DNA of 61,979 bases, from the IMG/VR virus record IMGVR_UViG_3300027985_000277, positions 1 through 61,979 of that record; one strand, written 5' to 3'. The notes below the pieces were generated by a model. The model was given only the letters and a program-made list of their open reading frames with translations. It was not told the origin of the DNA and searched no databases. Of this stretch, positions 9,044 through 50,508 are shown piece after piece (the first letter of the stretch is position 1; each line of letters begins with the position of its first letter). A program made the position numbers and the translations under genes. Source of the DNA: a virus. Taxonomy: Duplodnaviria; Caudoviricetes.

Positions 9044-9424
9044 TCTCCTCAGAGAACACCACGCTCGAAAACTTCATCGCGGCGCAGTATTTCCGTGCGA
9101 CCACCCGAGTGCCCTACTGGCTCTACATGCAGGGGCACCACGGCAAGGGCTCGAACCGATGGCACAAGCCCTCCAAGCCGTTCCGCCGTTCGGCGGCAGT
9201 GCGCAAGGTCTACCGTGGGGACGTGTGGTGGCTGGACGCACAGTAGCTAACTTGACCCCTGACGATGCGGGGCGGCGTGTCCTGGTGAACAGTGCTGTGG
9301 TGGGCGTTCTTGAGTCCACCCCGCACCCCGCCGTGTACTCGCATTGGCTGCTCAAGGAGACCCACAGAAATAGCGGTTGGTCGTTCCAAGTGCTGTATCT
9401 CGATGACGTTGTGGAGGAGGTTCT

Positions 9425-9649
9425 GTGAATTTTCCTGGATTGCCGGAAGGCTATTTCTGGCGTGTGAAGAAGACGTGGGGCCTCGCAGGAAATGTTACTG
9501 TTCAATTGAGGAAATCATTTGGACCATTCTCCTATTGCATTTCCGACGCAATAGTGGAGCCCCGAGACGTAGTTTTGGGGGCGACAAATGCCAAACAGAA
9601 GTGGGACAATTCCAAACGCATCCCAGAGGTGTTGGGGGACTACCGATGA
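9425..9649 (+). CDS. Hypothetical protein
   Basis: GGAGG RBS; overlaps both neighbours. Confidence 0.6.
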   Translation: MNFPGLPEGYFWRVKKTWGLAGNVTVQLRKSFGPFSYCISDAIVEPRDVVLGATNAKQKWDNSKRIPEVLGDYR

Positions 9650-10914
9650 GCAACAAGTACGAGATTTTGGGTGAGCGTAACTACAGTCTCAAGGTTGTGA
9701 AGGTGCGGCAACTTGTTGAGTTGCCCGGGCTGGACAACCTGCGCGGTGTCCCCGTGGATGGCTACATGGCGCTGGTATCGAAGGATACCCCGCTTGGTGG
9801 GCTCATGGTGATGTTCCCGGCAGAGTGCCAGATCGCACCCGAGTTCGCGGCTATGAACAACCTGTACCGGGACGTGACGTTGAACGACGGCGATGCCGTG
9901 GGCTACTTGGAGAAGTCTGCCCGTATCCGGGCCATCAAGCTGCGCGGGCATGTATCAAGCGCGCTGCTGCTGCCCGCGTGGGAGCCAGACATGGCCGAGG
10001 GCCTTGAGTTCGATACGATCAACGGTAAGACGCTCTCGTGGAAGTACGTCCCGCCCATCCGGCGCGGGGCCAACCCGGCACAGGGGGCTGCTCAGCGTAA
10101 GGTGTGGAAGCGCGTGGACGCGAAGTACCTTCCCGAACACCCAGACACGGCTCAGTACCTGCGTGAGCAGGACAGCATCTCCGACGATGCCTGGTTCGTG
10201 GTGTCACAGAAGCTGCATGGCACCTCCGTCAGGTTTGGGCGGACTGTGGTGAAGCGCCAACTCAAGTGGTACGAACGGCTGTTGGTCAAACTCGGTGTGC
10301 CGGTGAGCGACCACGAGTACGACCTGATCGCAGGATCTCGGAAGGTCATCAAAGACCCCAAGAGCACCACGCAGAATCATTGGTACTCAACTGATCTGTG
10401 GACCAGTGAAGCGCTCAAGTACGCCGACCTGATCCCGAGCAACGTCGTGGTCTACGGCGAGTTGATCGGGTGGGTTCCGGGCACAAGCACCCCCATACAG
10501 AAGAACTACACCTACCAGGTTCCAGTGGGCGAGTGCCAACTGTGGGTCTATCGCGTGAGCATCGTGACTGAGGACGCCAAGCAGTACGACCTTGGGGACG
10601 CCGCCATGCGCGAGTTCTGCGGGGCCCGTGGCCTGAACGTGGTTCCGAAACTCTGGGAGGGGTACAAGCAAGGATTCGAGGTTGAGCGTTGGCTGGACCA
10701 ACGATTTGCCGACATGGTTTCGGAGCGATGGATGTGGGGCTCTCCTGTGCCGCTTGCCAAAGAAAGCCCTGTGGATGAGGGCGTGGTTGTCCGAATTGAG
10801 GGCATCCTCCCCCGATTTTTCAAAGCGAAAGGCCCCATTTTCTATGCGCATGAAACCGCGCAACTTGACGGTGGTGAGGCTGACCTTGAGACAGAGGGCA
10901 GCACTGAAGGCTGA
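9646..10914 (+). CDS. RNA ligase (Rnl2/DRB0094-like, N-terminal OB-type domain)
   Basis: Motifs SQKLHGTS (I), VYGELIG (III), DEGVVVR (IV), FKAK (V); N-terminal RIRAIKLRGHVS. Confidence 0.88.
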   Translation: MSNKYEILGERNYSLKVVKVRQLVELPGLDNLRGVPVDGYMALVSKDTPLGGLMVMFPAECQIAPEFAAMNNLYRDVTLNDGDAVGYLEKSARIRAIKLRGHVSSALLLPAWEPDMAEGLEFDTINGKTLSWKYVPPIRRGANPAQGAAQRKVWKRVDAKYLPEHPDTAQYLREQDSISDDAWFVVSQKLHGTSVRFGRTVVKRQLKWYERLLVKLGVPVSDHEYDLIAGSRKVIKDPKSTTQNHWYSTDLWTSEALKYADLIPSNVVVYGELIGWVPGTSTPIQKNYTYQVPVGECQLWVYRVSIVTEDAKQYDLGDAAMREFCGARGLNVVPKLWEGYKQGFEVERWLDQRFADMVSERWMWGSPVPLAKESPVDEGVVVRIEGILPRFFKAKGPIFYAHETAQLDGGEADLETEGSTEG

Positions 10915-11025
10915 ACTGGTGCAGGCTTGGAACGACTTGACCGTGGACGAGAAGTTGGCTATGCTCAAGTCAGTGCCAAACTTGTACTGGAGGTTGGCTT
11001 GGTTCATAGCGAGGGAGGGCAACAG

Positions 11026-11904
11026 GTGACACTGCACTTGATGAGGGGCATCAGCGGCAGCGGGAAGACCACGTACGCTAAGGCGCTGGATGCCGTGCGG
11101 ATCAGCCGTGACGACATCCGGGCTGAACTGACTGGGCGCAGTGACAAGTTTGCGGGCGACTTCAAGTTCGAGGCCAAGGTGACGCGCATTGAGCAGGAAC
11201 GCGTACGCAACCTGCTGGTGCAGCGCAAGGACGTGGTTGTGGACGACACCAACCTGGTGCTCAAGCACGCCCGAACTTGGGCCAACATGGCGAACGACTA
11301 CGGCCACGACTTCGAGGTGCACGACCTGAACGTGGGTGTGTCGGTGGCTGCGGCCCGCAATGCTGAGCGTGAAGACGGGGTGCCTGTAGAGGTGATCTAC
11401 AAGCAGGACTCCCGAGCTTGCTGGGACGCTATTGTGGCTGACGCCACGCACCCGTTCGTGGACTGGAGCCCGGTGGAGGTTGACTACAACCTAGAGGACA
11501 TCGTGACGTGCGATATTGACGGCACGCTGGCGATTTTGGCGGACGGTTTCAGCCCCTACGACCCCGCTCATTACCCGTACGATGGTCTCAACCGATCCGT
11601 GTTCGCTGCTGTGTGGGCCATGCAGGGCGCAGGGTACCCGCTCGTGTTCCTGTCGGGACGCGACGAGGGCGGGCGACAGGAGACGTACCGGTGGCTGATG
11701 GACACCCAGTTGGATGTGTCTGAACTGTTCATGCGCAAGGCCGGAGACACCCGCCGCGACGACGTGGTGAAGGTGGAGATGTTCAATGAACACATCCGGG
11801 GCAAGTACAACATCGTGATGCATTTCGATGATCGCCAACGTGTAGTCAATGCATTGCGGGCAATCGGGGTTACCGTGTTTCAGGTTGCTGAAGGAGATTT
11901 CTGA
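11026..11904 (+). CDS. pseT: Polynucleotide 5'-kinase / 3'-phosphatase (T4 PseT-like)
   Basis: GISGSGKT P-loop, SRDDIR, HAD motif DIDGT, FDDR. Confidence 0.9.
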   Translation: MTLHLMRGISGSGKTTYAKALDAVRISRDDIRAELTGRSDKFAGDFKFEAKVTRIEQERVRNLLVQRKDVVVDDTNLVLKHARTWANMANDYGHDFEVHDLNVGVSVAAARNAEREDGVPVEVIYKQDSRACWDAIVADATHPFVDWSPVEVDYNLEDIVTCDIDGTLAILADGFSPYDPAHYPYDGLNRSVFAAVWAMQGAGYPLVFLSGRDEGGRQETYRWLMDTQLDVSELFMRKAGDTRRDDVVKVEMFNEHIRGKYNIVMHFDDRQRVVNALRAIGVTVFQVAEGDF

Positions 11905-15432: not shown

Positions 15433-15599
15433 ACGTCTACCCTCAGCACGGCCCAGACCCCAAGGTGGTCGTGGAGATGTCCCCGGAGGAAGCTTATCGG
15501 TTATCGGACATTCTCTACGACTCTCCTGAGTCTAAGCAGTTTGATTGGTACTTGATTGATCGAATTGCACTGGAACTAATGGAAGGAAACAATGGCTGA
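15429..15599 (+). CDS. Hypothetical protein (56 aa, below ORF-track cutoff)
   Basis: ATGA overlap; MNVYPQHGPDPKVVVEMSPEEAYRL... Confidence 0.55.
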   Translation: MNVYPQHGPDPKVVVEMSPEEAYRLSDILYDSPESKQFDWYLIDRIALELMEGNNG

Positions 15600-16350
15600 A
15601 ACTAGCCCAGACGAGTTCGATTTGGACTCAGTGTTGTCCAAGTATGTGGTGAAGCCGGTGGCTTCGGCCAAGCCGGAACTGCTCATGTTCTATAGCCCTC
15701 CTGGTTCGGGCAAGACTTGGCTGGCAGCATCTGCCAGCGAACTGCCCGGGGTCAAGAAGGTGCTCTACCTTGACATCGAGGGCTCCACGGTCGGCACACT
15801 GGGGTCGTTCGACCCAAAGAAAATCGACATCATCGAGGTTTACAAGCACCCTGACCCGTTTGCATTCGCCAACACGGTCCTTACCAAACTCGGTGACCCC
15901 GCTGCCAAGCACAGCTACGATGTGGTGGTGATCGACACCTTCGACACCTTGCAGGATCTGTCGATCAAGGCGTTCGACTCCAGCGACGGTTGGGAAATGT
16001 GGCGGGACGTGAAGGACTGGTCAACCGATATCGCCAAGATGCTCAAGCGCATCGCCCCTCTCGGCATCCTTGTGGTGCACGACCGGGAGGAGAAGTCCGA
16101 ATCCGGTGCTGTGGTGGCGCGACTGCGGTTGGCCGGTGCTGCCAAGGACATCCTTCCGGGCATCCCGGACGTGGTGGCCTACCTTGAGCGCAAGATCGAC
16201 AAGGAGGACGGCGAGGTGCATACCTACGCCTACTTCGAGAACTCGAACAAGAAAGTGACGAAGAACAGGTTCGGCTTCCCGCCCATCGTGAAGGACGTGA
16301 CGCTGGTGAACCTGTGGAAGTACATCGACAAGAAGGGAGAAGGTAAGTAA
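15592..16350 (+). CDS. AAA_24 / Sak4-like ATPase (recombinase)
   Basis: YSPPGSGKT, YLDIEG, VVIDT, TKNRF. Confidence 0.85.
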   Translation: MAETSPDEFDLDSVLSKYVVKPVASAKPELLMFYSPPGSGKTWLAASASELPGVKKVLYLDIEGSTVGTLGSFDPKKIDIIEVYKHPDPFAFANTVLTKLGDPAAKHSYDVVVIDTFDTLQDLSIKAFDSSDGWEMWRDVKDWSTDIAKMLKRIAPLGILVVHDREEKSESGAVVARLRLAGAAKDILPGIPDVVAYLERKIDKEDGEVHTYAYFENSNKKVTKNRFGFPPIVKDVTLVNLWKYIDKKGEGK

Positions 16351-16961
16351 TGGCACGTAAGGCCGAAGTAACAGGTGAGGTTTCAACCGAGGTTGGAGGT
16401 GCCTTCAAGCCGCTCCCTGCGGGACGCTACGAGGTGACCATCTTCGGGGTGGAGGAAGGCAAGTACAAGAACGGAGCCAACAAGGGCCGTCCCAACATCA
16501 ACGTCCAATACCGGATCAGCGAGGGTCAGAAGGGCACCAACCGGCGCGTCTTCCAGTTGATCCCGCTGTTCACCAACTGGGGTGGACCCGACAAGAAAGA
16601 TGCGTTCAGCTTCTTCCAGTTCTTCTCTGTTGTGCAGGGCATGTCGGAGAAGGACTTCCGGATCGCAGTGAAAGAGGACGGCGCAGCCGACAACCTTCCT
16701 GACGACGACGACCTCCTGGGCATGGAGTTGACTATCACCCTCAAGGTGGAGGACGACGAATACCATTTCGAGGAAGCCAAGAAGAAGTGGGAAGCCGAAG
16801 GCAGCAAGGGTGAGCCCCCCGTACAGGCGGACTACCAGCGCAACAGCGTCCAGAGCGTAAGCCCTGCGGGCAACGGCAACATGGACAAGGACTCCGACGA
16901 TGAGCCCTCCAGTGGCGGTGGCAGCACCAAGCGCTCGAAGGCTACGGTTCTTGACCTGTAG
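16350..16961 (+). CDS. Single-stranded DNA-binding protein (DUF669-like)
   Basis: FKPLPAGRYEVTI N-terminus, acidic tail, follows Sak4-like gene. Confidence 0.7.
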   Translation: MARKAEVTGEVSTEVGGAFKPLPAGRYEVTIFGVEEGKYKNGANKGRPNINVQYRISEGQKGTNRRVFQLIPLFTNWGGPDKKDAFSFFQFFSVVQGMSEKDFRIAVKEDGAADNLPDDDDLLGMELTITLKVEDDEYHFEEAKKKWEAEGSKGEPPVQADYQRNSVQSVSPAGNGNMDKDSDDEPSSGGGSTKRSKATVLDL

Positions 16962-16979
16962 AACGTAGTGGTGTAAGGT
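16951..16979 (+). promoter_or_regulatory. SigA-type promoter TTGACC-N17-TAAGGT driving the ncRNA cluster
   Basis: Spacing fits; first RNA helix starts ~7 nt downstream. Confidence 0.65.
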
Positions 16980-16985
16980 AGTTCC

Positions 16986-17354
16986 TGTTGTAAGGGGCGA
17001 GCGCCACGGGCCCTTAGCCCTGACAACTTCATAGAGCAACACAGACCTGATCAGTCTGTGGAGGGTGGCTGAACATCGCGGGACTGCCAGTTCTGCGGCG
17101 AAAGGCGCAACTGGGGCTTAGCGGCCCTACCTTAGCGGGTGTAACAGTTGGCGGGCTCAAAAGGGGTACTCACTAGAGCGCACTGGCTTGGCCTTGGCGG
17201 TAAAACCCAATCCGCCCCCTCGCCCGACTCGGGCACTCCGTACAGGGGTCGTTCTAGTTCCGAGCAGCGCGGACAATGCGTGAGTCCGACGCAACAATAT
17301 ACGCGGTAAAGGTAGGGACCGCGCCCAAGCCCGCCTGACAGCCGGAAAGACGGC
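16986..17354 (+). ncRNA. Large structured ncRNA A (unassigned)
   Basis: No credible CDS; many helices and two loop-mediated long-range pairings. Confidence 0.6.
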
Positions 17355-17360
17355 GGTTCC

Positions 17361-17439
17361 GGGCCTTAATAGGTTTCGACGGTTGCTAACGCCCCACGAG
17401 GGACACAACCGGAAGCGAGTTCGATTCTCGCAAGGTCCA
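17361..17439 (+). ncRNA. tmRNA-like RNA consisting only of the tRNA-like domain
   Basis: GGGCCTT/AAGGTCC acceptor with G3-U70, GGTTTCGAC D-loop motif, GGTTG/CAACC P2, T-arm GCGAG-TTCGATT-CTCGC, discriminator A. Confidence 0.8.
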
Positions 17440-17444
17440 CGAGC

Positions 17445-17710
17445 AACTGTGAGTCGTGCTTGCGAGGTGGCACCTTCGAACTCTGACTCTCTGTGGGGTC
17501 TGGACCACACATCACCCAGACTGGCCGTAGACAGCTACTACGAGATGCTGTTAGCCACAGCAGGGTGTCCCCTAGTACCGGTGGGGCAGGCGCTTCGAGT
17601 GCGCAGCACCTACGATGGGCCCCTCTGGCGGAGGGTTTGGCGGTTCGGTTACGCCCATCTAAGCCCGGACACCCGGCCCGTCTGTGCCGCCAGCACCTGG
17701 GGCCGGGATT
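17445..17710 (+). ncRNA. Large structured ncRNA B (unassigned)
   Basis: GGGTGTCC/GGACACCC multibranch, 7-bp loop-loop complement, T-run at 3' end. Confidence 0.6.
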
Positions 17711-17713
17711 TTT

Positions 17714-17784
17714 GCCCCCTTACCACAGTGGCAGTGGACCCGACTTGTAATCGGTTTACATGTGTTCGATTCACATAGGGGGCT
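17714..17784 (+). tRNA. tRNA-Thr(TGT)
   Basis: GCCCCCT/AGGGGGC acceptor, CCAC/GTGG D-stem, loop CTTGTAA, T-arm ATGTG-TTCGATT-CACAT; no CCA. Confidence 0.9.
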
Positions 17785-17789
17785 CGTGG

Positions 17790-17966
17790 ATAGTGAGTTC
17801 TGCTGCATGAGGGACGACCACTGAAACGGTAAGCGATGCAGTGGTGAGAGTTGGTCTGCGTCCGGACAGCCCGCAACCTATTGCGGGGTAATAAACGGCG
17901 CGGGGTATGGGGCTCTCCGATCACAGCCCCGGTGGCGGGACGCCGCACGAGAGTACTAGTCTCTCG
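17790..17966 (+). ncRNA. Structured ncRNA C (unassigned)
   Basis: Series of hairpins; no credible CDS. Confidence 0.45.
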
Positions 17967-18021
17967 GCTGTGTGTTACGTTTTAGGCGTACATTGGAAGG
18001 GTTCGAGTCCTCAGCACAGCA
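17967..18021 (+). ncRNA. Truncated tRNA-like element
   Basis: GCTGTGT/GCACAGC stem, TTCGAGT T-loop, only one other arm. Confidence 0.4.
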
Positions 18022-18051
18022 CTCACAACCGTACGAGGAGAGGAGTTCGTT

Positions 18052-20190
18052 TTGCAGGAGTTCTTCTCCGCGATTTACGGCGATGCGTCAGGGTGGGTTG
18101 ATATTGTCAACCGGGACCAAGATACCGGAAAGATCGACTCTGAGATGTGGCGTGAATGGCCCCGTTCAGTAGCCTACCTCGCCAAGTATTGCGGGCTCCG
18201 ACAAGACGAAGACACTTACTGCTCCGTGGCGCTGTTCACCGATAAGCTGCGCACCAAGGACGACACAAAGGCCATTGCCAATGCTGTGTGGGCCGATGCC
18301 GACACCTGTGACCCCCAGAACTTCCGCGCCACTCCCTCCATCATCGTCAATACCTCCCCGGGGCGTTGGCACTGCTGGTGGGTGTTGGACGCCCCTGTGC
18401 CCGCCGCAGACGCTTCCCTCACTAGTCAGAAAATCGCCTACGCTCACCGTGAGCAAGGCTGTGATCTGGGGTGGGCTGTCAGCAAGATCCTGCGGGTGCC
18501 CGGCACAACCAACACCAAGGACGGCCAGAACTTCTTGGTCACCGCAGAGTACACAGGAGTGCTCTACACCCTTGAGGAACTGAACGCCCTCTACACTGAC
18601 GTAGAGGCTCAGGCCCCGGTAGCGCTGACCGATGCGATGCCTGAATTGCTGACGCTTTCAGAGCGCATCGCCTTGGAGAAGCGGGTCATCGAGAACAGCC
18701 CGTTTGAGAATCTGTATCTGACGCCCCCCGAAGCCGGAGCGGACTGGTCCCAGAAACTGTTCCGACTCCAGTTTGACCTGTTCCGGGATGGGTGTACTCC
18801 CCAAGAGGTTTTCACGCTTAGCAAGCATTCGGCCTGTAACAAGTTCGCCCGGGACAACCGACCAGACTCTGACCTCTGGAAGACCGTACAGAATGCATAT
18901 CATAAGTACGAATCGGAGGAAGCACCTATTGCTGTGCGGGTAGAGGCCCGCAAAACCTACACGATTCCTGAGTTTGTGACTGATGACGAACGAAAATCTG
19001 CAACCGGAGGGTTTCCCGACACCTACACCAAGTGGGTGGCACAGCGGTCGGACGCGGCACAGACCTACAACTACAGCCTCGCCTACATGCTGCTGTCGTG
19101 CGTGTTCGGAGATCGGGGCTACATCCCGGACAAGTTCGGAATGCGTCGATTGAACCTGTGGCTACTGCTGCTGGGGGACACCACCCGCACCCGTAAGTCC
19201 ACCGCCAAGTCACTGTTCCTGCGTGTACTGCACGGGTATGAGACGGCTGCTTTGAATGGCGGCAAGATCGACATCGGCTCTGATGTCACCAAGGAAGGCC
19301 TGGGCAAGGTGCTCGGAGAACGTGATGGGCTGGTGTCCCTGATGCAGACCGACGAAGTGAACGGCATGTTCCGGGAGATGTACGGCAAGAACTACCAGAT
19401 CGGAACGCTGTCCTACTTCACTGACCTGTACGAGGGATTTGTGCCGGTGGTGCTTCGGGCAGCCAAGGATGCCGGGCAGACCAATCGGGCTCGGACAACG
19501 TTCAACATGCTGGGCGTGGGCATTCGGGAGCATGTGGCCCAGACCCTGACCAAAGAGGATTTTGAGTCCGGCTTTCTGGTTCGCATGTTGTGGTCGGTGG
19601 CCGACCCCGGGCCACGTCAGAAGGGTTCGGACAATTGGATCGACGCGATGGAGGCAGCCTCGGATGAGGCGGACGTGGCCCGCATCGTTTTGGACCTCAA
19701 GCGCAGAGCGAACAAGTTCGTGCCCGAGGCACCCTCTGCAATCAAGATTTCGGACTCAGCCAAGATCCGCTACAACGAGTGGGCTGAACTGGTGCGCAAG
19801 CACAGTGAGGAGTACGGAGACTCCGCATTGGAGGCCAGCATTGATCGCTTCCAGCACAGCATTCGGAAAGCAGCAGCCCTGCTTGCCATGTACGATGGTG
19901 TAGAAGTGATCGAGTTGAAGCACCTGCTCCCTGCTCTGGTGCAAGCTGAGCGTTGGTATGGGGACATGCTTCGGATGTTGAACGAGGTATCTTCCTCGGA
20001 TTTCGAGCGGTTGCTGAATGAGGTGGAGGCTTTCATCTCTCAAGGCACAAATGGTGAACGACAGGACGCAGCGGTGAAGCGCAAGTTCGCTCGTCTCAAG
20101 CCACAGGAGATTGGAGATGCTTTGACATCATTGAAAGCGCAGGGACGCATTCGCAACAACGGACAGTCGATTTGGCAGGTGCTGGCGTGA
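18052..20190 (+). CDS. DNA primase-helicase (RepB-like primase N-term, DUF3987-like ATPase C-term)
   Basis: WADAD, TSPGRWHCWW, LRVPGTTNTK; GDTTRTRKST, TDE, SGFLVR; GAGGAG RBS before TTG. Confidence 0.85.
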   Translation: MQEFFSAIYGDASGWVDIVNRDQDTGKIDSEMWREWPRSVAYLAKYCGLRQDEDTYCSVALFTDKLRTKDDTKAIANAVWADADTCDPQNFRATPSIIVNTSPGRWHCWWVLDAPVPAADASLTSQKIAYAHREQGCDLGWAVSKILRVPGTTNTKDGQNFLVTAEYTGVLYTLEELNALYTDVEAQAPVALTDAMPELLTLSERIALEKRVIENSPFENLYLTPPEAGADWSQKLFRLQFDLFRDGCTPQEVFTLSKHSACNKFARDNRPDSDLWKTVQNAYHKYESEEAPIAVRVEARKTYTIPEFVTDDERKSATGGFPDTYTKWVAQRSDAAQTYNYSLAYMLLSCVFGDRGYIPDKFGMRRLNLWLLLLGDTTRTRKSTAKSLFLRVLHGYETAALNGGKIDIGSDVTKEGLGKVLGERDGLVSLMQTDEVNGMFREMYGKNYQIGTLSYFTDLYEGFVPVVLRAAKDAGQTNRARTTFNMLGVGIREHVAQTLTKEDFESGFLVRMLWSVADPGPRQKGSDNWIDAMEAASDEADVARIVLDLKRRANKFVPEAPSAIKISDSAKIRYNEWAELVRKHSEEYGDSALEASIDRFQHSIRKAAALLAMYDGVEVIELKHLLPALVQAERWYGDMLRMLNEVSSSDFERLLNEVEAFISQGTNGERQDAAVKRKFARLKPQEIGDALTSLKAQGRIRNNGQSIWQVLA

Positions 20191-20336
20191 AAATCCAACT
20201 GGCAATCGAAGTGTTTCGGAGGGTGTTTGTGTGGTCTACTCAATTCTCGATGGTGAAGCATCAAGAGCCGGAACTGGAGCCTGAAGAAGAGGAAGAAGTA
20301 GATGTTACTTCTATTCCATTAGGGTTTCATGGATGA
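20187..20336 (+). CDS. Small hypothetical protein (49 aa)
   Basis: GTGA and ATGA overlaps with both neighbours. Confidence 0.5.
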   Translation: MKIQLAIEVFRRVFVWSTQFSMVKHQEPELEPEEEEEVDVTSIPLGFHG

Positions 20337-23266
20337 TTCTCAAGTACGTCACCACCTCCGACCTGACGCCGGAATACACCGCTATGCTGAAGCAGGCGGT
20401 GCGTTCGGTGTTCCCGGATGGGGTGCAACTGAGGCCTACCGCCAGTGCGCTGCGGGCCCAGATCGTGCTCAGCCCAGAAAACGATACTTACGATGACCTT
20501 GTGGCTGTGTTCACCCATTTCGCCACCCTTGTGCCGTGGCCCGGCCATGATGCGGAGACGCTGTACTTTGACATCGAAACCCATGATGCCGACTTGCGAT
20601 GGAACATGCCTGTGGAAGAGTTCTTCCGACTGGGGCAGTATTCCTGGGGCATCAACGGAGAAGTGCACCTTACCACCGACCTCGAAGAGATGCGGGCTCT
20701 GATCCGCAAAGCCTACGGTGTGGTGGGGCACAACATCCACAGCTTTGACCTCAGTGTGCTGCTGGGGGACGAGGCATTGCTGCTGCCTCGGGTGTTCGAC
20801 ACAATGGTGCACGCAGCACTGGTGAACCCGGCACCCTACATGTTTACTACCCGAAACGGCCATACCTATTACGACGGCATGAAGCCGGAAAAAGCACTGG
20901 TGTGGCTCTCATTGGACAACCAATGTTTTGTTCTTGGAGTACCCGGAAAAATCGGTGACCTGAAAGCACTGGCAAAGAAATACGGTGGGTTCGGGAACAT
21001 CCCGATTGACGACAAAGAGTTTGAGGAATATGCAATTGGTGACATTAAGCCTGCACTTCAAGGGCTTACTATGGCGCTGCTGGAAAAGCGGCCTCTGGAA
21101 TCGTATGACTGGCGGGAACAGGTAAATGCGGCCATTGATGCTCAGAATACTCGCAATGGTTTTGTGGTGAACATTGAAAAGGCTAAAGCTCGTGTCCTAG
21201 AATTGCAGTCTGAAAAAGAGCGTCTGCTGGCAATGCTTGAATCCGATTACGGTTTCCCCACCAATGGAGTGCAGCCGTGGAAATCGAAGGCGGGCAAGGA
21301 AGCCATCTTCAAGATCCTTGCGGACAATGGCATCACGGCACAAACCAAGCCCGACTGGACGCGCACGGCCACGGGAAATTTGAGCCTTGGTGGCGAAGTG
21401 CTGATCGAACTCACTGAGGGTACCGCTGCCGAAGAACTGGGGCGCTCTCTTGCCACTCTGATGGGGCAACGTTCGCTTGCTCAGCTTGCATTAGACAGCG
21501 TGCAGAATGACGGCAAGGCACATCCCCAGATCACGGCCCTGCAACGTAGCGGCAGGAAGTGCGTACCAACGAGCCACCGGATTCTCACGCAACGAGGACT
21601 ACTTACTGTGGACCAAGTTCTCCCGGGGGATAAAACACTAGATGTGTACAACGAGTGGACAAGTGTTACTGGGGTGCATCGTTATGATGACCAACCCACC
21701 CTTGTCTGGAGGAATTCTCGCGAATCGTATGAAGCTACTGCCGAGCATCGTTGGGTGCAAACACCGCTTGAGGATTCTCGGTGGTCAGTAGAGCCCATCG
21801 CGCAGGGGTCTCGGAGGAGACTGAAACTCACACCGGAAACTTACTTCTTTGATCTTTCTAAGCATCGTCGTTACCCGTCAGATATGTCCCGGAGTGAAAA
21901 GTTTGCTGCATTCGTAGGTTTATTGGTAACGGATGGGAGATGTGCGATACGTTCGGACAGTGGGAGCATTGCTGCGCATGTCTATCAGACCACGCATAAG
22001 TTCTACAAAGAGATGCTGTCCGTTCTGCCAAAGCACCTAATTGTGTCTGACACGTATCGAACTGAAACCGATCATCATGATGTGCGGCTTTCAGCTTCGG
22101 GGGTAGTTCGTATGTTGTCCGATAACGGATTAAGGGTTGAAGGCAATCTTCGGAAATCTTCCTCTTTGCTCCCTTGGATTTTGGGGCTAACGCAACGAGA
22201 GTGCTTAGCATTTCTTTGTTCGGTGTGGTTGGCGGATGGGGCAACTTCCGCAGACAAAGGTGTACGTATTTCTTGCAAAAATGATGTTTTAGCAGAATGC
22301 GTAATGATTGCTGCTTACCGTTGTGGGTATCGTCCTGTTCATTCTTATTATGACAATCCAAACGGGGGACGTGCGGGAGTAATTAGTCTGCGCCTGGACA
22401 GAATGGCGGTGAAAAAACTGACTCCCGTGTCTTCTCGTTCGGACGTGTGGTGTGTAACCACAAGTAGTGGAACATGGACTGCGTGGAACGACAACGGTCC
22501 TTATCTTACGGGGAACAGCACAACCAAGCCTGGCTTAACGGTCTGGTCCGCCAAGGGCGATAAGGCGGTGGAGAAGTCCTACTTCATCGCCTCCCCGGGA
22601 CGTAAGCTGATCGAGTTCGACTTCAGTAACGCCGACTCTCGGGTGGTCGCTGCCTACAGCGGAGACGAAGCGTTCGCCAAACGGCTCGAACCGGGTGTGG
22701 ACGGCCACGACCTGACCGGGGAGATTTTCTTCGGCTACGATGCCTATCACGCCGACCGGGAGAACTTGCGTCCTCTCGCCAAGGTTGCCAACCATGCCCT
22801 TGCCTATCGAATCGGCAAGAAGAAGCTGGCTGCGAAGATGGGCAAGACCGAGGCCGAGGCACAAGGCTACATCTTCGCCTACCAGGATGCTTACCCCGAC
22901 GTGGCAGCATGGCAGGATCGTGTGACCCATGAGGGGGAGCGAGGGTACATCGTCAACCGGTGGGGGCGGCGCATGATCGTGGACCCCGACCGGTCGTTCA
23001 CCCAGTCTGCGGCTCTGCTAGGCCAGTCCGGCACACGGGAGGTTCTAGTGGACGGGTTGATCCGCCTACTGGAGCGTGATCCCAAGTACATCCGGTACCT
23101 TGTTGCGCAGGTGCATGACGCGATTGTGATGGATGTGCCGGAACAAGAGGTTGACGAAGTGATCGCTGTGGTACTAGAGTGTATGGAGACAACTTGGAAT
23201 GGTATCGAGTTCCCGATGGAGCACGGTACCCCTGCAAACGACTGGCAGGCTTGCAGTCACGGTTAG
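20333..23266 (+). CDS. polA: Family A DNA polymerase with 3'-5' exonuclease and an intein
   Basis: FDIET, GHNIHSFD; DFSNADSR (motif A), RPLAKVANHALAY (B), QVHDA (C). Confidence 0.93.
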   Translation: MILKYVTTSDLTPEYTAMLKQAVRSVFPDGVQLRPTASALRAQIVLSPENDTYDDLVAVFTHFATLVPWPGHDAETLYFDIETHDADLRWNMPVEEFFRLGQYSWGINGEVHLTTDLEEMRALIRKAYGVVGHNIHSFDLSVLLGDEALLLPRVFDTMVHAALVNPAPYMFTTRNGHTYYDGMKPEKALVWLSLDNQCFVLGVPGKIGDLKALAKKYGGFGNIPIDDKEFEEYAIGDIKPALQGLTMALLEKRPLESYDWREQVNAAIDAQNTRNGFVVNIEKAKARVLELQSEKERLLAMLESDYGFPTNGVQPWKSKAGKEAIFKILADNGITAQTKPDWTRTATGNLSLGGEVLIELTEGTAAEELGRSLATLMGQRSLAQLALDSVQNDGKAHPQITALQRSGRKCVPTSHRILTQRGLLTVDQVLPGDKTLDVYNEWTSVTGVHRYDDQPTLVWRNSRESYEATAEHRWVQTPLEDSRWSVEPIAQGSRRRLKLTPETYFFDLSKHRRYPSDMSRSEKFAAFVGLLVTDGRCAIRSDSGSIAAHVYQTTHKFYKEMLSVLPKHLIVSDTYRTETDHHDVRLSASGVVRMLSDNGLRVEGNLRKSSSLLPWILGLTQRECLAFLCSVWLADGATSADKGVRISCKNDVLAECVMIAAYRCGYRPVHSYYDNPNGGRAGVISLRLDRMAVKKLTPVSSRSDVWCVTTSSGTWTAWNDNGPYLTGNSTTKPGLTVWSAKGDKAVEKSYFIASPGRKLIEFDFSNADSRVVAAYSGDEAFAKRLEPGVDGHDLTGEIFFGYDAYHADRENLRPLAKVANHALAYRIGKKKLAAKMGKTEAEAQGYIFAYQDAYPDVAAWQDRVTHEGERGYIVNRWGRRMIVDPDRSFTQSAALLGQSGTREVLVDGLIRLLERDPKYIRYLVAQVHDAIVMDVPEQEVDEVIAVVLECMETTWNGIEFPMEHGTPANDWQACSHG
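21560..22516 (+). mobile_element. Intein with LAGLIDADG homing endonuclease (319 aa)
   Basis: SGRK|CVPTSHRILT ... DVWCVTT...YLTGN|STTKP; FVGLLVTDG and CSVWLADG; more AT-rich than the C-terminal extein. Confidence 0.92.
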
Positions 23267-27541: not shown

Positions 27542-28288
27542 TTACATTCCTACCTTGGAGATAGTGAGTCCGGTTCCTTGGAATTGAATGGTTGCATTAG
27601 AGGATAGCCCGGCTGTTGCTGCATAATAGCCCCGGCGTGTGCGGAATGTATACAGAGCACCCGGATGCAGGAATGACCACACATGTGCTTGGCCCGTACT
27701 CGCGATGGTGACCTGGCCGTCATTGGTGACTCCCCACTCTACAATGATCCCATCACCTCGCGTTGGATTCTTCACAGGGTCCCCGTCTTCGTCCAGAACC
27801 TCTACACCAATGAATCCGGAGGACAGAGAACTGTTTTCGGCCAGCACGGAAATGAACCCGCTAGCTTGCACCGAAACCTTCCCTGTTGAAGGAATATGGA
27901 TTTGTAGTTCCGTGTCTGCTGCTGGGTCGTACGGGAGCCATGTGAGGGGAATATCCTCAGTAAATGCGGTGAACGTAATTGTTGTGAAGTCGCTGGGGGC
28001 TGTTTCTCCCGACACTGTTTGATCCGCCAAGAATTGAACCTGGGTGTTCAACGATGATTGCATGGTTGCGAGCGCAGTCTGAGTGGTCGCAATCGTTTCC
28101 TGTGCGGACTGAATCAGTGCTTGAGTCTGGGCAATAGTGCTCTGGGCCGACAGAATTGCGTCTACGCGGTTATTGCTGCTGGTGATTAGGGCAGACAATT
28201 TCTTGTCGTTTGCCTCCAACGCTCGAAGTCGCTTTTCGACATCTCGACCCCACAATGCACTTTGCGGAGGAAGATTGGCTTTGACCAT
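27542..28288 (-). CDS. Minor tail protein
   Basis: Coiled-coil N-terminus; position in tail module. Confidence 0.75.
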   Translation of the reverse strand: MVKANLPPQSALWGRDVEKRLRALEANDKKLSALITSSNNRVDAILSAQSTIAQTQALIQSAQETIATTQTALATMQSSLNTQVQFLADQTVSGETAPSDFTTITFTAFTEDIPLTWLPYDPAADTELQIHIPSTGKVSVQASGFISVLAENSSLSSGFIGVEVLDEDGDPVKNPTRGDGIIVEWGVTNDGQVTIASTGQAHVWSFLHPGALYTFRTRRGYYAATAGLSSNATIQFQGTGLTISKVGM

Positions 28289-29731
28289 TTATGCCGTCCT
28301 TGTTGGTAATGTAGCAAATACCCCACAGGTTTGACCTGCCCAAAGGGTATTGAAGTCGGTAATTGTCTTTCCGGACCAAGCAGTGTTGAACTCAGAGACC
28401 AGTGTATCAGCCGTACCACTCAGGGAGTACCCTGTAGGGGACATGGTTACAGAAGAGATACGGAAGATGGCTCCTTCGCCCGTATGACGTGACCCCAGCA
28501 AGTCAGAGAACGCATTGTTTTGGATTGCTTCTGCTGAGACAGAATGGGTGGGCCCAGCAAATGCTTGGGCGGCACGGACACCAACAGTCCAAAGTCGCTC
28601 TGTCGTGTCTACGAAAGGGTTCTCCACTGTTGTAGCATTCTCTTCCTTGCTCACTGTGCCCTCCACTCCGGTCACGAACGTTTGTGTGGTCTTCACATAC
28701 CGGACACCGTACCCAGTAATGTGCAGAGAGTTATAGAATGCATTTTCGTCTACCGCTGTTGCAGCAATAGAATACGGAGCGAGTGTGGTTCCTCCGCTCG
28801 TATTCGGAAGACTTTCTACGTCGGGCGCAGTTATAGTAACGTGAAGAACTGAAGGATCATCCGAAATTTCTACCCGGATGCTTCCCCCCTGATCCACCCA
28901 TTGAGCAGCGACAATCGGAAGTCCATCATTTCCTGCAACACAATAAGCACCTGTATCTGTGCGTTCTTCTGGTCCAACGAGATCCATCGGCACAGGCTGA
29001 TTAACAGCGGATAGCCACCCGTTGCATTTGATGTCGTACTGAACTACTTCTCCTGCATCTACGGTAAGGATTTGAGGGTCGTCCACAGAAAATGGAGCGA
29101 ACTCCAAATACCCCGAACTCGGAATGGTGTATTCATACATATTCGCACTTACACTTTGCGCAGAAGTCTGGTCGTTCACGCTGTAAGTTCGAGACGAGAA
29201 TTTGGGGCTTGCAGGTTGTGTTCGAATGGTGCGAAATTTGATTACGTCTGGAGTTCCACTGTCCACGTAATATTCGTAGTCGTAGACCGTGCAAAAATGC
29301 TTGAGGTAGTCGAGTATTACCCCGCGCCATCCCGGGAACACCACTGTACCAGTGGTCGGGAGACCGGAACTGGACATCCCCGCAAGAGATAGAACTTGGT
29401 CCATTGCGTCCGTCAATGACAGTCCGTACGACGGGTAAATTGTGGCCTCAATATTGAGTCGTTGCAGCATAGTCTCCGCTGTGAATTCTACAGCGTTCTT
29501 GCTCCCCCAAGAGACCTGACTAATGCGTCCTGCGGCGGAACCGAATTGCGTATCTGTGAGAACGAATTGACGGTTTCGATTGACCTGGGGATATGTGAGT
29601 GGGCCTGTGGTGAACTTGATTGATCCCGTGCCGCCGTCAAGATCAGCCGGGTTCAAGGAAGGCACAGCGGCTTCAGCGCTGTATTGGGTGATGTTTGAGC
29701 CGATACCAGCAATGTCGGTCTTTACAGCCAT
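28289..29731 (-). CDS. Minor tail protein (baseplate hub-like)
   Basis: Second gene after tape measure. Confidence 0.75.
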   Translation of the reverse strand: MAVKTDIAGIGSNITQYSAEAAVPSLNPADLDGGTGSIKFTTGPLTYPQVNRNRQFVLTDTQFGSAAGRISQVSWGSKNAVEFTAETMLQRLNIEATIYPSYGLSLTDAMDQVLSLAGMSSSGLPTTGTVVFPGWRGVILDYLKHFCTVYDYEYYVDSGTPDVIKFRTIRTQPASPKFSSRTYSVNDQTSAQSVSANMYEYTIPSSGYLEFAPFSVDDPQILTVDAGEVVQYDIKCNGWLSAVNQPVPMDLVGPEERTDTGAYCVAGNDGLPIVAAQWVDQGGSIRVEISDDPSVLHVTITAPDVESLPNTSGGTTLAPYSIAATAVDENAFYNSLHITGYGVRYVKTTQTFVTGVEGTVSKEENATTVENPFVDTTERLWTVGVRAAQAFAGPTHSVSAEAIQNNAFSDLLGSRHTGEGAIFRISSVTMSPTGYSLSGTADTLVSEFNTAWSGKTITDFNTLWAGQTCGVFATLPTRTA

Positions 29732-42002: not shown

Positions 42003-42040
42003 TGCAACTACGTCTCAGTTTAGCAGATTTTCACTCTGCG

Positions 42041-42124
42041 TGCGCCGGATGAGATTCGAACTCATACGCCCTCTCGGGCAACCGATTTTGAGTCGGTCGC
42101 GTCTACCAATTTCGCCACAAGCGC
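42041..42124 (-). tRNA. tRNA-Leu(CAA)
   Basis: ACCGA-CTCAAAA-TCGGT, long variable arm, ATGAG-TTCGAAT-CTCAT. Confidence 0.92.
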
Positions 42125-42128
42125 CCGG

Positions 42129-42203
42129 CCCGCCAAGTCCACTTGGACTATTGCCACGAGTGCACTCAATGTGGACAATAGCAGGGGGATCGAACCCCAC
42201 GGG
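42129..42203 (-). ncRNA. Circularly permuted tRNA-like RNA (T-arm, closed acceptor-like stem, D-arm)
   Basis: GGGG-TTCGATC-CCCC, long stem-loop, TA-GTC-CAAGTGGACTT-GGC, closed by CCCG/CGGG. Confidence 0.5.
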
Positions 42204-42210
42204 AAAACTA

Positions 42211-42291
42211 CGAAGCCAGACCCCTTGAGTGGGAACCAGACGGGGGCCCACCCGTTGCTCACGCCGTCCCCCGAGAGAGGGTAAGGCTTCG
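42211..42291 (-). ncRNA. Small structured, possibly pseudoknotted RNA
   Basis: CGAAGCC/GGCTTCG closing stem with crossing internal complements. Confidence 0.4.
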
Positions 42292-42293
42292 CG

Positions 42294-42364
42294 TAGCTCG
42301 ACCGGGACTCGAACCCGGAGCGCAGGGTTATGAGCCCAGCATGTTTCCGTTACACCATCCAGCT
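42294..42364 (-). tRNA. tRNA-Met(CAT), initiator-like anticodon stem
   Basis: GGG-CTCATAA-CCC; CCGGG-TTCGAGT-CCCGG; one acceptor mismatch. Confidence 0.85.
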
Positions 42365-42371
42365 AAAACAG

Positions 42372-42455
42372 GAGCGGGGGTTGGACTCGAACCAACGACT
42401 ATTGCTCTCCGGTTTGAAGGGTGCCCGCACGCTCTGCCCGCTGAGCTACCCCGCT
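42372..42455 (-). tRNA. tRNA-like RNA with non-canonical anticodon arm
   Basis: Perfect acceptor, D- and T-arms; anticodon region enlarged and containing CTTCAAA. Confidence 0.6.
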
Positions 42456-42461
42456 CCTGCG

Positions 42462-42534
42462 TCCGGATGGAGAGATTCGAACTCCCGACTCCTTGGCCCC
42501 AAACCAAGTCGCATAGCCGCTTGCGTACATCCAG
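42462..42534 (-). tRNA. tRNA-Pro(TGG)
   Basis: CTTGG-TTTGGGG-CCAAG; GGGAG-TTCGAAT-CTCTC. Confidence 0.9.
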
Positions 42535-49185: not shown

Positions 49186-50508
49186 TCACACACATTGGAT
49201 CGGGATGTTGACGGCGGTGATGACCAGCGCGTGATCGGAGCCGCTGGACGGCTTCACGTTGTAGCCGCGCCAGTCGACCGGGGTCAGGCTGTCCGAGTGG
49301 ATGCGGTCGGTGATCGCCTTGCCCTGGTAGGTCTTGGCGTCGCGGGTGCCGCTGTTCGCTGCCTTCTCGCGTGCGTCGTCCCAGCCGGGCAGCCAAGCGT
49401 TGTCGTTCACGCCGTCGCCACCAAGGATGCGCGGACCCTGACCGAACTTCCGGATCGCTGCGATCATCTGCGACATCTGCGAACGCTGCTGGGCGTCCGT
49501 GCTGCGGCTGTTCGGCGTCAGGTGGTAGGAGCCGAACACGACCTGCTGGCCGGTGCTCTTGTCCTTCAGCACGCAAATCTGACCGCCCTGGTAACTGATG
49601 CCCTTGAAGTTCACCTCGGTCTCAGCGGTCTCGGTGAGCCGGTCGGAGTCCCACATGATCGCCTGTGCACCACGGGGACGGACCAGCCAGCGAGAGGCAC
49701 CGCCCGGCATGGCGGCGCGCAGCGGGTCGCGGATCACCTCAGGGCATTCGTTGAGCAGGTAAACGTCAGCCTTCGCCTTCACAGCCGTCTTGCCGAGCGC
49801 GGCGGCACGGGAGGCGGTCAGCGGCTTCGAGCCGGTCAGTGCGGGGTCCATCGTGTTGAAGGTGGCGACCCGCAGAGCGAGCACGGTGGCAGGCGTGGGG
49901 GTGGGGTCGGGGGTCGGCTCGGACCACTCGGCAATCTTCGCCAGCACGTCGGCCCGCACGCTGCCCATGTCGTCACCGGGGTCTCCCGGCTTGCGTCGGG
50001 TCAGTTCCTTGTGGGCAATCACCCGTGCACCGTTCGTCCAACCCTCGGCAATGTGCAAAGCGGCACAAACCTCCACTACATGCTTGCGAACAATGGGGGT
50101 CCATTTCCCTGTGCCGTCTGCCTCGATACCCCACCCGTGTCGGTTCCCCGACCACGAGCCATCACTTGCCGGAGGTTTGACTTCCGATGTCAGTTTGCCT
50201 TCCTTAGCGAGACGCCAATTGTCGTATCCGCCGTAACCAACATCATTCGTGTACCCGTCCGCCATCACGTAGATGTTTCCAGACTGCCCCACCAAAATGT
50301 TGGCGAGTGGGCCGGGAAGATTGCTTCGCCCACTGCGAATTACTCGCAGTGGGGTGGATACGTCTCCCGTGTGATGAACGTAGCATACTTCCGGAACAAG
50401 GGGGGTTCGCGATGCTTCTCGCCCCTGCCAACCGCTGTCCATGATAACGTGCGTGCCGTGAGATTCGAGGATCGCGACAGCCTTCTTCAGGACTTCGGAG
50501 TTAGTCAT
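49186..50508 (-). CDS. Endolysin: amidase_2 domain + PT linker + EEP-family domain
   Basis: VHHTG, GIEA, IAHKE...KPGDP; VATFN, LLNE, YHL, GGD, SDHALV. Confidence 0.85.
   Translation of the reverse strand: MTNSEVLKKAVAILESHGTHVIMDSGWQGREASRTPLVPEVCYVHHTGDVSTPLRVIRSGRSNLPGPLANILVGQSGNIYVMADGYTNDVGYGGYDNWRLAKEGKLTSEVKPPASDGSWSGNRHGWGIEADGTGKWTPIVRKHVVEVCAALHIAEGWTNGARVIAHKELTRRKPGDPGDDMGSVRADVLAKIAEWSEPTPDPTPTPATVLALRVATFNTMDPALTGSKPLTASRAAALGKTAVKAKADVYLLNECPEVIRDPLRAAMPGGASRWLVRPRGAQAIMWDSDRLTETAETEVNFKGISYQGGQICVLKDKSTGQQVVFGSYHLTPNSRSTDAQQRSQMSQMIAAIRKFGQGPRILGGDGVNDNAWLPGWDDAREKAANSGTRDAKTYQGKAITDRIHSDSLTPVDWRGYNVKPSSGSDHALVITAVNIPIQCV

Follow-up and report, generated by a model that had tools for sequence, protein, structure and literature searches.

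The stretch of DNA analyzed here (the window) covers a complete virus record, IMGVR_UViG_3300027985_000277, which is 61,979 bp long and has direct terminal repeats, and the region in question is a gap of 1,090 nt (16962-18051) in its replication and recombination block. The neighbouring genes all point rightward: a Sak4-like AAA_24 gene (15592-16350) and a DUF669 gene of single-strand-binding (SSB)-like type (16350-16961) lie upstream of the gap, and a primase gene of DUF3987/RepB type (18052-20190, where the open reading frame (ORF) matches Pfam DUF3987 and RepB_primase) and a family A DNA polymerase gene (20333-23266) lie downstream. By primase, the nearest isolate is Stenotrophomonas phage Jojan60 (38.9% identity, 103 records matched), and protein searches gave closer uncultured relatives with up to 79% identity. 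The original prediction had described the gap as a dedicated operon, in which three large structured RNAs (A, B and C) alternate with tRNA-shaped units and together form an undescribed multi-RNA system. Our results show that it holds one real tRNA, a tmRNA consisting of the tRNA-like domain (TLD) only, an RNA of the manA family and two broken tRNA look-alikes, and not three new large RNAs.

As predicted, the gap has no credible protein-coding sequence (CDS): the five ORFs tested in 16962-18051 (131, 85, 117, 99 and 53 aa) had no match in Pfam or PHROG, and they overlap the RNA genes. At curated cut-offs, ARAGORN and Rfam called a single RNA in the gap, a canonical tRNA-Thr with anticodon UGU (17714-17785, +, by ARAGORN; cloverleaf 17714-17784, 60.2 bits, passing the gathering score of RF00005), which confirms the tRNA-Thr proposed earlier. 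The other elements, all on the plus strand, are in order a promoter-like motif (16951-16979), the manA-family RNA (17041-17226), the mini-tmRNA (17361-17442), a degenerate tRNA-like unit (17543-17611) and, beyond the tRNA-Thr, a truncated tRNA-like unit (17967-18021) close to the primase start. The layout, the gene strand and the punctuation by tRNA-shaped units had thus largely been seen correctly, but the degenerate unit splits RNA B and the number of such units is therefore four and not three.

The mini-tmRNA has an acceptor stem (GGGCCUU / AAGGUCC) with the alanine identity pair G3:U70, a wobble formed by G17363 and U17436, a D-loop analogue GGUUUCGAC (the loop written in full is AAUAGGUUUCGA) without a D stem, a 6-bp P2 helix, a 3-bp hairpin CCC-CACGA-GGG, a T arm GCGAG-UUCGAUU-CUCGC and a discriminator A followed by CGA. 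Its T loop is of the GUUCGAnUC type of TLD-only tmRNAs. An mRNA-like domain, with resume codon, tag reading frame and pseudoknots, was not found in the unit, and as only 20 nt lie between the P2 strands, like in mycobacteriophage DS6A, we classify it as a TLD-only variant rather than as a working tmRNA. No SmpB gene was found in the phage genome.

Since MAFFT misaligned the mini-tmRNAs, a first model (R1) was built from the window copy alone and a family model (R2) was used thereafter, both with cmsearch. The search covered the related loci L002, L015-L095 and L114-L193 (L096-L113 left out), 15 whole related genomes and two named phages, and resulted in a family of 14 distinct sequences, the window included. 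All 294 of the 294 cells in the predicted helices were paired, and 15 of the 21 pairs were altered on both sides among the 14 sequences, including four of the five pairs in the T stem. The first three pairs (G1-C, G2-C and G3.U) were invariant, with G3:U70 present in 14/14 members. None of 500 shuffles reached the observed values and slid partners paired in only 33-49% of cells. Fitting the alignment to the model biases it towards pairing; given the slid controls and the members outside the training set, we argue that the pairing signal is real. One such member is DS6A (28478-28560), which was not used for training and matches R2 at 72.2 bits, and another family member lies unannotated inside a tRNA array of Streptomyces phage LuckySocke. 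Moreover, units in synteny with that of the window score above the Rfam tmRNA cut-off of 47 bits, both in Jojan60 (L002, 4874-4956, 61.8 bits) and in the related locus L114 (1944-2025, 52.4 bits). An exact mini-tmRNA pattern, tried on IMG/VR, hit 12 stretches, none of which resembled a mini-tmRNA.

The TLD-only tmRNA of DS6A is like that of the window in length (about 82 nt), GGG start, G3:U70, D-loop analogue and the lack of a tag frame, and also in the 5-6 bp P2 helix and the T arm GUUCGAUUC. The inner hairpin CCG-CACG-CGG is identical in DS6A, LuckySocke and the loci L114, L115 and L095, compared to CCC-CACGA-GGG in the window. The two phages differ in lineage and host group, the window copy ends in ACGA, and the surroundings are different as well, a tRNA island next to the primase gene in the window and a position about 120 nt upstream of the DNA polymerase III gene in DS6A. 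Mao et al., in 2009, are reportedly the source to which Hudson and colleagues refer for the DS6A molecule. Judged by its pairing and its likeness to DS6A, the window unit is a real mini-tmRNA, as had been predicted, and a further member of the DS6A TLD-only kind. In passages of Hudson et al. (2014, PMC4131195) the DS6A molecule is listed as a "TLD only" tmRNA, and a DS6A-like molecule, chargeable or not, is described as strongly inhibiting tmRNA in E. coli, perhaps by titrating SmpB (PMC4131195, PMC11915505). Considering G3:U70 and this report, the window molecule is predicted to be charged with alanine and most likely binds SmpB. The kind is thus a published one, which speaks against an undescribed system; in the literature searched we found neither so broad a family (14 sequences) nor a mention that it occurs, without annotation, in Jojan60, LuckySocke and Streptomyces phage GiJojo.

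The existing annotation of these phages deserves a comment. Hypothetical CDSs are annotated over the mini-tmRNA both in Jojan60 (L002, 4762-4902) and in GiJojo (PP725410.1, 17034-17104), and the four tRNAs of Jojan60 are annotated on the strand opposite to the Rfam matches in that locus. Of the 7 genomes that have a mini-tmRNA, 5 carry an RNA ligase (PF09414 or RtcB), compared to 1 of the 12 wholly scanned genomes that show no mini-tmRNA, a co-occurrence that is a lead or hint only, as the genomes are related and hand-picked. Separately, the window encodes an RNA ligase (phrog_968, E 4e-83; Pfam RNA_ligase) adjacent to a polynucleotide kinase (phrog_505, E 6e-76) at 9292-11904 (+), two genes that resemble the T4-type tRNA repair pair, and DS6A (L314) carries an RtcB-like RNA ligase (49300-50502).

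RNA A was found to consist largely of a member of a known Rfam family. With permissive thresholds, manA (RF01745) matched 17041-17226 (+) over the whole model (positions 1-192) at 48.4 bits and E 5e-11; searched over the whole genome the match had an E of 5.3e-13, and 0 of 14 control genomes gave one. The window RNA lacks one hairpin (model positions about 102-115), and the same hairpin is missing in a second element, L369 (313-500, minus strand), which scores 61.6 bits and lies above the cut-off. Between the two, 13 consensus pairs are altered on both sides with pairing kept, distributed over the pseudoknot (3/5), P3 (4/6), P3a (1/3), P3b (2/6), P4 (2/7) and P5 (1/5). This was further supported by a 232-nt contig of a relative from run X20, an RNA library, which covers 17074-17294 with 9 substitutions and 1 insertion. 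Four of the substitutions form two compensatory pairs (17109/17149 to G-C and 17198/17214 to U-A), two change a pair to or from wobble, two fall in loops and one (17180) breaks a weak pair. The window RNA is like the manA motif in its full-length match, in keeping the pseudoknot, P3, P3a, P3b, P4 and P5, and in having the conserved CUGAA and GGUA...AAUCC blocks; it differs in its sub-cut-off score, in the one missing hairpin and in its host genome, a phage of 60% G+C and not a T4-like cyanophage.

Passages of Weinberg et al. (2010, PMC2864571) put manA forward as a riboswitch candidate in 5' untranslated regions (5'-UTRs) of marine bacteria and cyanophages, and later work on its function was not found in the literature searched. 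Downstream of the window RNA lie the mini-tmRNA and further RNA units, and the primase start follows 825 nt later; that RNA genes and not a protein-coding gene come next departs from the proposed 5'-UTR role. An expression platform was considered and rejected, as the terminator after the manA RNA is weak in the window and was not called in L369. In L369 a tRNA-Ala and a tRNA-Met come after the manA RNA. In L211 a classical manA RNA (121.4 bits) is separated by 2 nt from the tRNA-Thr upstream of it and by 11 nt from the tRNA-Ala downstream, an exact bracketing which makes its excision by tRNA-processing enzymes plausible. L211 came from a loose manA pattern that matched at least 118 stretches, mostly by chance, of which 15 passed a stricter head motif and 11 looked manA-like by eye, with L211 as the one checked with Rfam. 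At the other 10 loci no tRNA was found in the fetched stretches, so the link between manA and tRNAs is occasional and not general. A subfamily pattern from the last manA hairpin found L369 as its single IMG/VR contig, and manA was not found in the related complete genomes Jojan60 and G001.

The region upstream of the primase gene is a recurrent site for tRNA genes. Loci were gathered with an alignment of 32 primase homologues, a single primase as query having yielded nothing. Among 80 IMG/VR loci with primase relatives, 28 have same-strand tRNAs within 1.5 kb upstream of the primase, and in 22 of the 80 the distance between the end of a tRNA (Trp 11, Asn 9, Thr 1, Leu 1) and the primase is 25-60 nt. 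The number of intact tRNAs at this site varies from 0 to 4 per relative, and Jojan60 (L002) has 4 tRNAs and the tmRNA match at the corresponding place. A purpose-written scanner, which looks for a T loop with its T stem and for an acceptor stem of 7 bp, was applied to 147 distinct loci and reported 108 units on the strand of the primase gene against 1 on the opposite strand; 47 of the units were not called by ARAGORN. At the strict setting, both strands of the window gave 7 units, of which 3 lie in the gap, 3 in a second tRNA cluster (42.3-42.5 kb) and 1 elsewhere, compared to 0.8 expected from the shuffled whole window. The unit elsewhere is a 41-nt T-arm and acceptor match in a coding region (27872-27912, -) and is probably a chance hit at that expectation. 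The cluster at 42040-42534 (-) encodes tRNA-Leu(CAA), tRNA-Met(CAT), tRNA-Gly(ACC) and tRNA-Pro(TGG); its tRNA-Gly is odd or interrupted, with a length of 85 nt and 26 nt in the anticodon arm as compared to 15 in the Rfam model.

The relaxed setting added the fourth unit of the gap, at 17543-17611 (+), with the T arm GCGC-UUCGAGU-GCGC on a 4-bp T stem, six of seven acceptor pairs and ACGA after it. It shares 14 of 16 bases in its 3' half with the truncated unit at 17967-18021 (+), and neither of the two was matched by the RF00005 tRNA model at E up to 10. The truncated unit has a complete acceptor stem (7/7), the T loop UUCGAGU, three T-stem pairs, a discriminator A and a single hairpin where the D and anticodon arms would be, and it ends 31 nt before the primase start. 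A homologue with identical acceptor stem and T loop lies in L114 (2203-2263), and in about 12 relatives other short units (38-69 nt) are found directly upstream of the primase, which bears out the truncated element of the earlier description. Passages of Forner et al. (2007, PMC1920247) describe t-elements in plant mitochondria, non-canonical tRNA-like structures which direct cuts by RNase P and RNase Z that form mRNA ends. As in t-elements, the unit at 17967-18021 retains T arm and acceptor stem next to an mRNA end, and it fits the t-element-like form of an acceptor stem stacked on the T arm with the other arms lost. It differs in its phage setting and in the origin of the units, which stem from one tRNA island instead of being scattered, and any cleavage at it is putative. 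The recurrent truncated units before primase genes suggest that t-element-like formation of mRNA ends may occur in phages.

Several other elements were noticed at these sites. The window and L114 share the 9-mer CGTTTTAGG, for which no enrichment was seen; the 9-mer CGUUUUAGG lies in a hairpin loop of both islands (window 17978-17986, L114 2779-2787) with differing stems and no third site among the compared loci, two hits being no more than chance would give. A tRNA-like unit of 101-108 nt recurs upstream of tRNAs in related phages (L016-L019, L028, L029, L042, L044, L057, L145, L151, L166, L171 and L173; for instance L016, 1037-1144); its T arm is perfect, its acceptor stem reads GUCCUGA or GUCYUGG / UCGGGRC or CCGGGGC, and it is missed by ARAGORN. 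Units without D arm that end in ACGA were seen in L043 (3890-3961), L024 (3887-3958) and L053 (3488-3561), about 40 nt before the primase start in the first two and about 440 nt upstream in L053. Their long pyrimidine-rich loop CUUCUUCUCC is, by eye, complementary to a purine-rich GGAGAAGAAGAA just downstream, which could be an anti-Shine-Dalgarno type of pairing. The islands of G001 (L015, 2250-2410) and Jojan60 (L002, 4690-4830) have in common, again by eye, a stretch of about 150 nt that ends ...CUUAAGAACGAGGCGUCGC.ACACGCCUACUCC and has no Rfam match in L002, where it was searched, and no counterpart in the window. An HNH-like ORF (about 2540-2920) appears by eye to be inserted in the island of L015.

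Possibly, the gap is a decaying tRNA array, in which the units and spacers other than tRNA-Thr are remnants with no role in processing or in interference with the host. Such decay could explain why relatives range from no to four intact tRNAs at this site, the acceptor mismatch and short T stem at 17543-17611, the three T-stem pairs at 17967-18021 and the lack of conservation of the spacers. However, remnants would not be expected to show the clear structural selection seen in the mini-tmRNA family, with G3:U70 invariant in 14 sequences from three host groups, nor compensatory change in the manA RNA, nor perfect acceptor stems in the truncated units before primases of about 12 relatives in a set with 1 of 109 units on the opposite strand. 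We consider this explanation unlikely.

The two remaining RNAs of the original prediction gave little indication of being structured RNAs of their own. RNA B (17443-17713) had a z-score of +0.21, with 112 of 200 shuffles folding as well; it consists of two spacers without homologue (17443-17542 and 17612-17713, +) on either side of the degenerate unit. RNA C (17786-17966, +) is a spacer with several hairpins, and together with the last unit it had a z-score of -2.24 with 4 of 200 shuffles folding as well, which is marginal. The spacer from the manA RNA to the mini-tmRNA (17227-17360, +) had a z-score of -0.69, and the leader at 16962-17040 (+) has no assigned element, no Rfam match at E up to 10 and no homologue. 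Homologues of RNA B or RNA C were found neither in about 180 related loci nor in 50,697 phage records, and blastn of the whole island against the same records gave no match. Comparing the island with all fetched loci, by nhmmer and by blastn at word size 7, recovered the mini-tmRNA and tRNA-Thr and nothing else, and an exact 18-mer from RNA C hit 0 stretches in the IMG/VR pattern scan. Rfam searches of 16800-18150 at E up to 10 gave no match to RNA B or RNA C and none to GOLLD or ROOL, which the original prediction had named as parallels and described as large non-coding RNAs near phage tRNAs; manA was matched instead, and the free spacers of the island are only 80-180 nt long.

Natural variation did not lend support to RNA B and RNA C either. 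Only two natural variants fall in RNA B, of which one keeps its pair as a wobble and the other (17581 G>A) breaks the pair with its minimum free energy (MFE) partner 17613, and the four variants of run X3 in 17227-17360 either leave the MFE fold unaffected or give a wobble in it. In close relatives the contigs stop at 16990 and before 18036, which suggests that the island is a mosaic, and those of runs X3, X5, X8 and X20 leave 17720-18035 uncovered, which says nothing about absence. Most likely, both RNA B and RNA C represent variable spacer sequence or tRNA sequence that has decayed; RNA C may contain a structured RNA, and nothing positive was found for RNA B.

A promoter of its own had been a further part of the predicted operon. 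The hexamers TTGACC (16951-16956) and TAAGGT (16974-16979) with a spacer of 17 bases are present on the plus strand, and the motif overlaps the DUF669 gene at its 3' end, where the stop codon is 16959-16961. The motif TTGACS-N17-TAAGGT occurs at the homologous place in L114 (1816-1844), whose primase is 57% identical, with different bases between the hexamers and a shifted stop codon. From these two genomes a promoter for the island is plausible. Concerning the other end, no significant terminator was found on either side of the island; 2 terminator-like sites, including the weak hairpin at 17235-17249, were found with 2.1 expected from shuffles. Immediately before the primase, a short 5' leader (18022-18051, +) carries a purine-rich ribosome-binding region GAGGAGAGGAG.

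Thus, that the gap is a dedicated operon with three large novel RNAs, freed by RNase P and RNase Z and acting as one system, appears improbable. Such an operon agrees with the real alternation of spacers and tRNA-shaped units, the conservation of the promoter-like motif in L114, the precise placement of the L211 manA RNA between tRNAs and the marginal stability of RNA C. Against it, RNA A belongs to a known family, RNA B is no more stable than its shuffles and is split by a fourth tRNA-like unit, one of its two variants breaks a predicted pair, no B or C homologue turned up in the related loci, the phage records or the IMG/VR pattern scan, and close relatives replace parts of the island, with loose ends after 16990 and before 18036 and 17720-18035 uncovered. 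In addition, tRNA islands recur at this site, which directly adjoins the primase start, and no significant terminator was found on either side, so that a dedicated operon is not supported. Release by tRNA-processing enzymes, the remaining part of the proposal, is plausible for a large structured RNA by analogy with manA in L211. An origin of replication between the SSB-like gene and the primase is highly improbable, since apart from the position in the replication module and 1.09 kb without genes there are no iteron-like repeats in the gap (direct-repeat families of 10-20 nt have 2-3 copies), the G+C of 0.597 is similar to that of the flanks, RNA genes on one strand account for what the gap contains and relatives fill the site with tRNAs.

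Taken together, we favour the explanation that the gap is a phage tRNA island in a replication and recombination block, which would be transcribed together with its neighbours and cut at the tRNA-shaped units, releasing tRNA-Thr, an alanine-type decoy for SmpB, a manA RNA and a trimmed primase mRNA, and we give this a probability of roughly 0.7. The observation behind the original prediction is in this way partly confirmed and its interpretation partly supported. Several points weigh against our explanation. The manA match of the window, at 48.4 bits, is below the gathering score of 55.2, and the inner P2 and P4a are unsupported by the comparisons. The window mini-tmRNA was not matched by the Rfam tmRNA model at E up to 10 and so does not reach the gathering score of RF00023 (47 bits), and it ends in ACGA and not in ACCA; furthermore, the effect of a TLD-only tmRNA might be to rescue ribosomes, without tagging, and not to inhibit their rescue. 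Together with the last unit, RNA C was more stable than 196 of 200 shuffles, and in the run X3 contig of a close relative RNA B is nearly unchanged, with 7 differences in 558 nt being too few to be informative. A generic sigma-70 scan gave 0 promoter-like sites in 16000-19000, a scan that misses the motif because TAAGGT agrees with TATAAT at only 3 of 6 positions. The X20 contig is the sole evidence from an RNA library, and as this library may contain DNA it is no proof of transcription.

In the process we propose, the island would be transcribed with the neighbouring genes and perhaps also from its own TTGACC-N17-TAAGGT promoter, and host RNase P together with a 3' tRNA-processing nuclease such as RNase Z would cut at the four tRNA-shaped units. 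The 5' end would yield a manA-family RNA of about 190 nt, which could act in cis as a sensor for read-through into the island or be set free as a stable RNA. The next product would be the 80-nt mini-tmRNA with G3:U70 and no tag frame, which would most likely bind host SmpB, and possibly alanyl-tRNA synthetase and EF-Tu, and thereby compete with the host tmRNA as reported for the DS6A-like molecule in E. coli. Processing would further release tRNA-Thr(UGU) and finally a primase mRNA with its 5' end set by the last truncated tRNA-like unit, resembling the plant mitochondrial t-elements. A comparable phage tRNA operon is the tRNA gene cluster of phage T4, which contains two extra small stable RNAs that are made through the tRNA-processing pathway. 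As a tentative extension, which we regard as rather unlikely, manA RNAs may not, or not only, be riboswitches and could be free stable RNAs of phage tRNA operons cut out by RNase P and RNase Z; with the alanine-accepting TLD-only tmRNA and the t-element-like units the manA RNA of this phage clade might then form one cassette that acts on host translation and ribosome rescue, together with the phage RNA ligase and polynucleotide kinase and directed at host defences that cut tRNA or mRNA, with RNA C as a possible further member.

Our results imply that the stretch can be annotated and that there is no need to treat it as a new system. For manA, an orphan riboswitch candidate since 2010, the position at the head of or inside tRNA clusters narrows what the RNA might sense or do. 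The DS6A-type tmRNA, in turn, is no one-off and belongs to a conserved, mostly unannotated family in phages of Proteobacteria, Streptomyces and Mycobacterium, and this breadth makes phage interference with ribosome rescue, or the supply of it, testable in cultivable systems.

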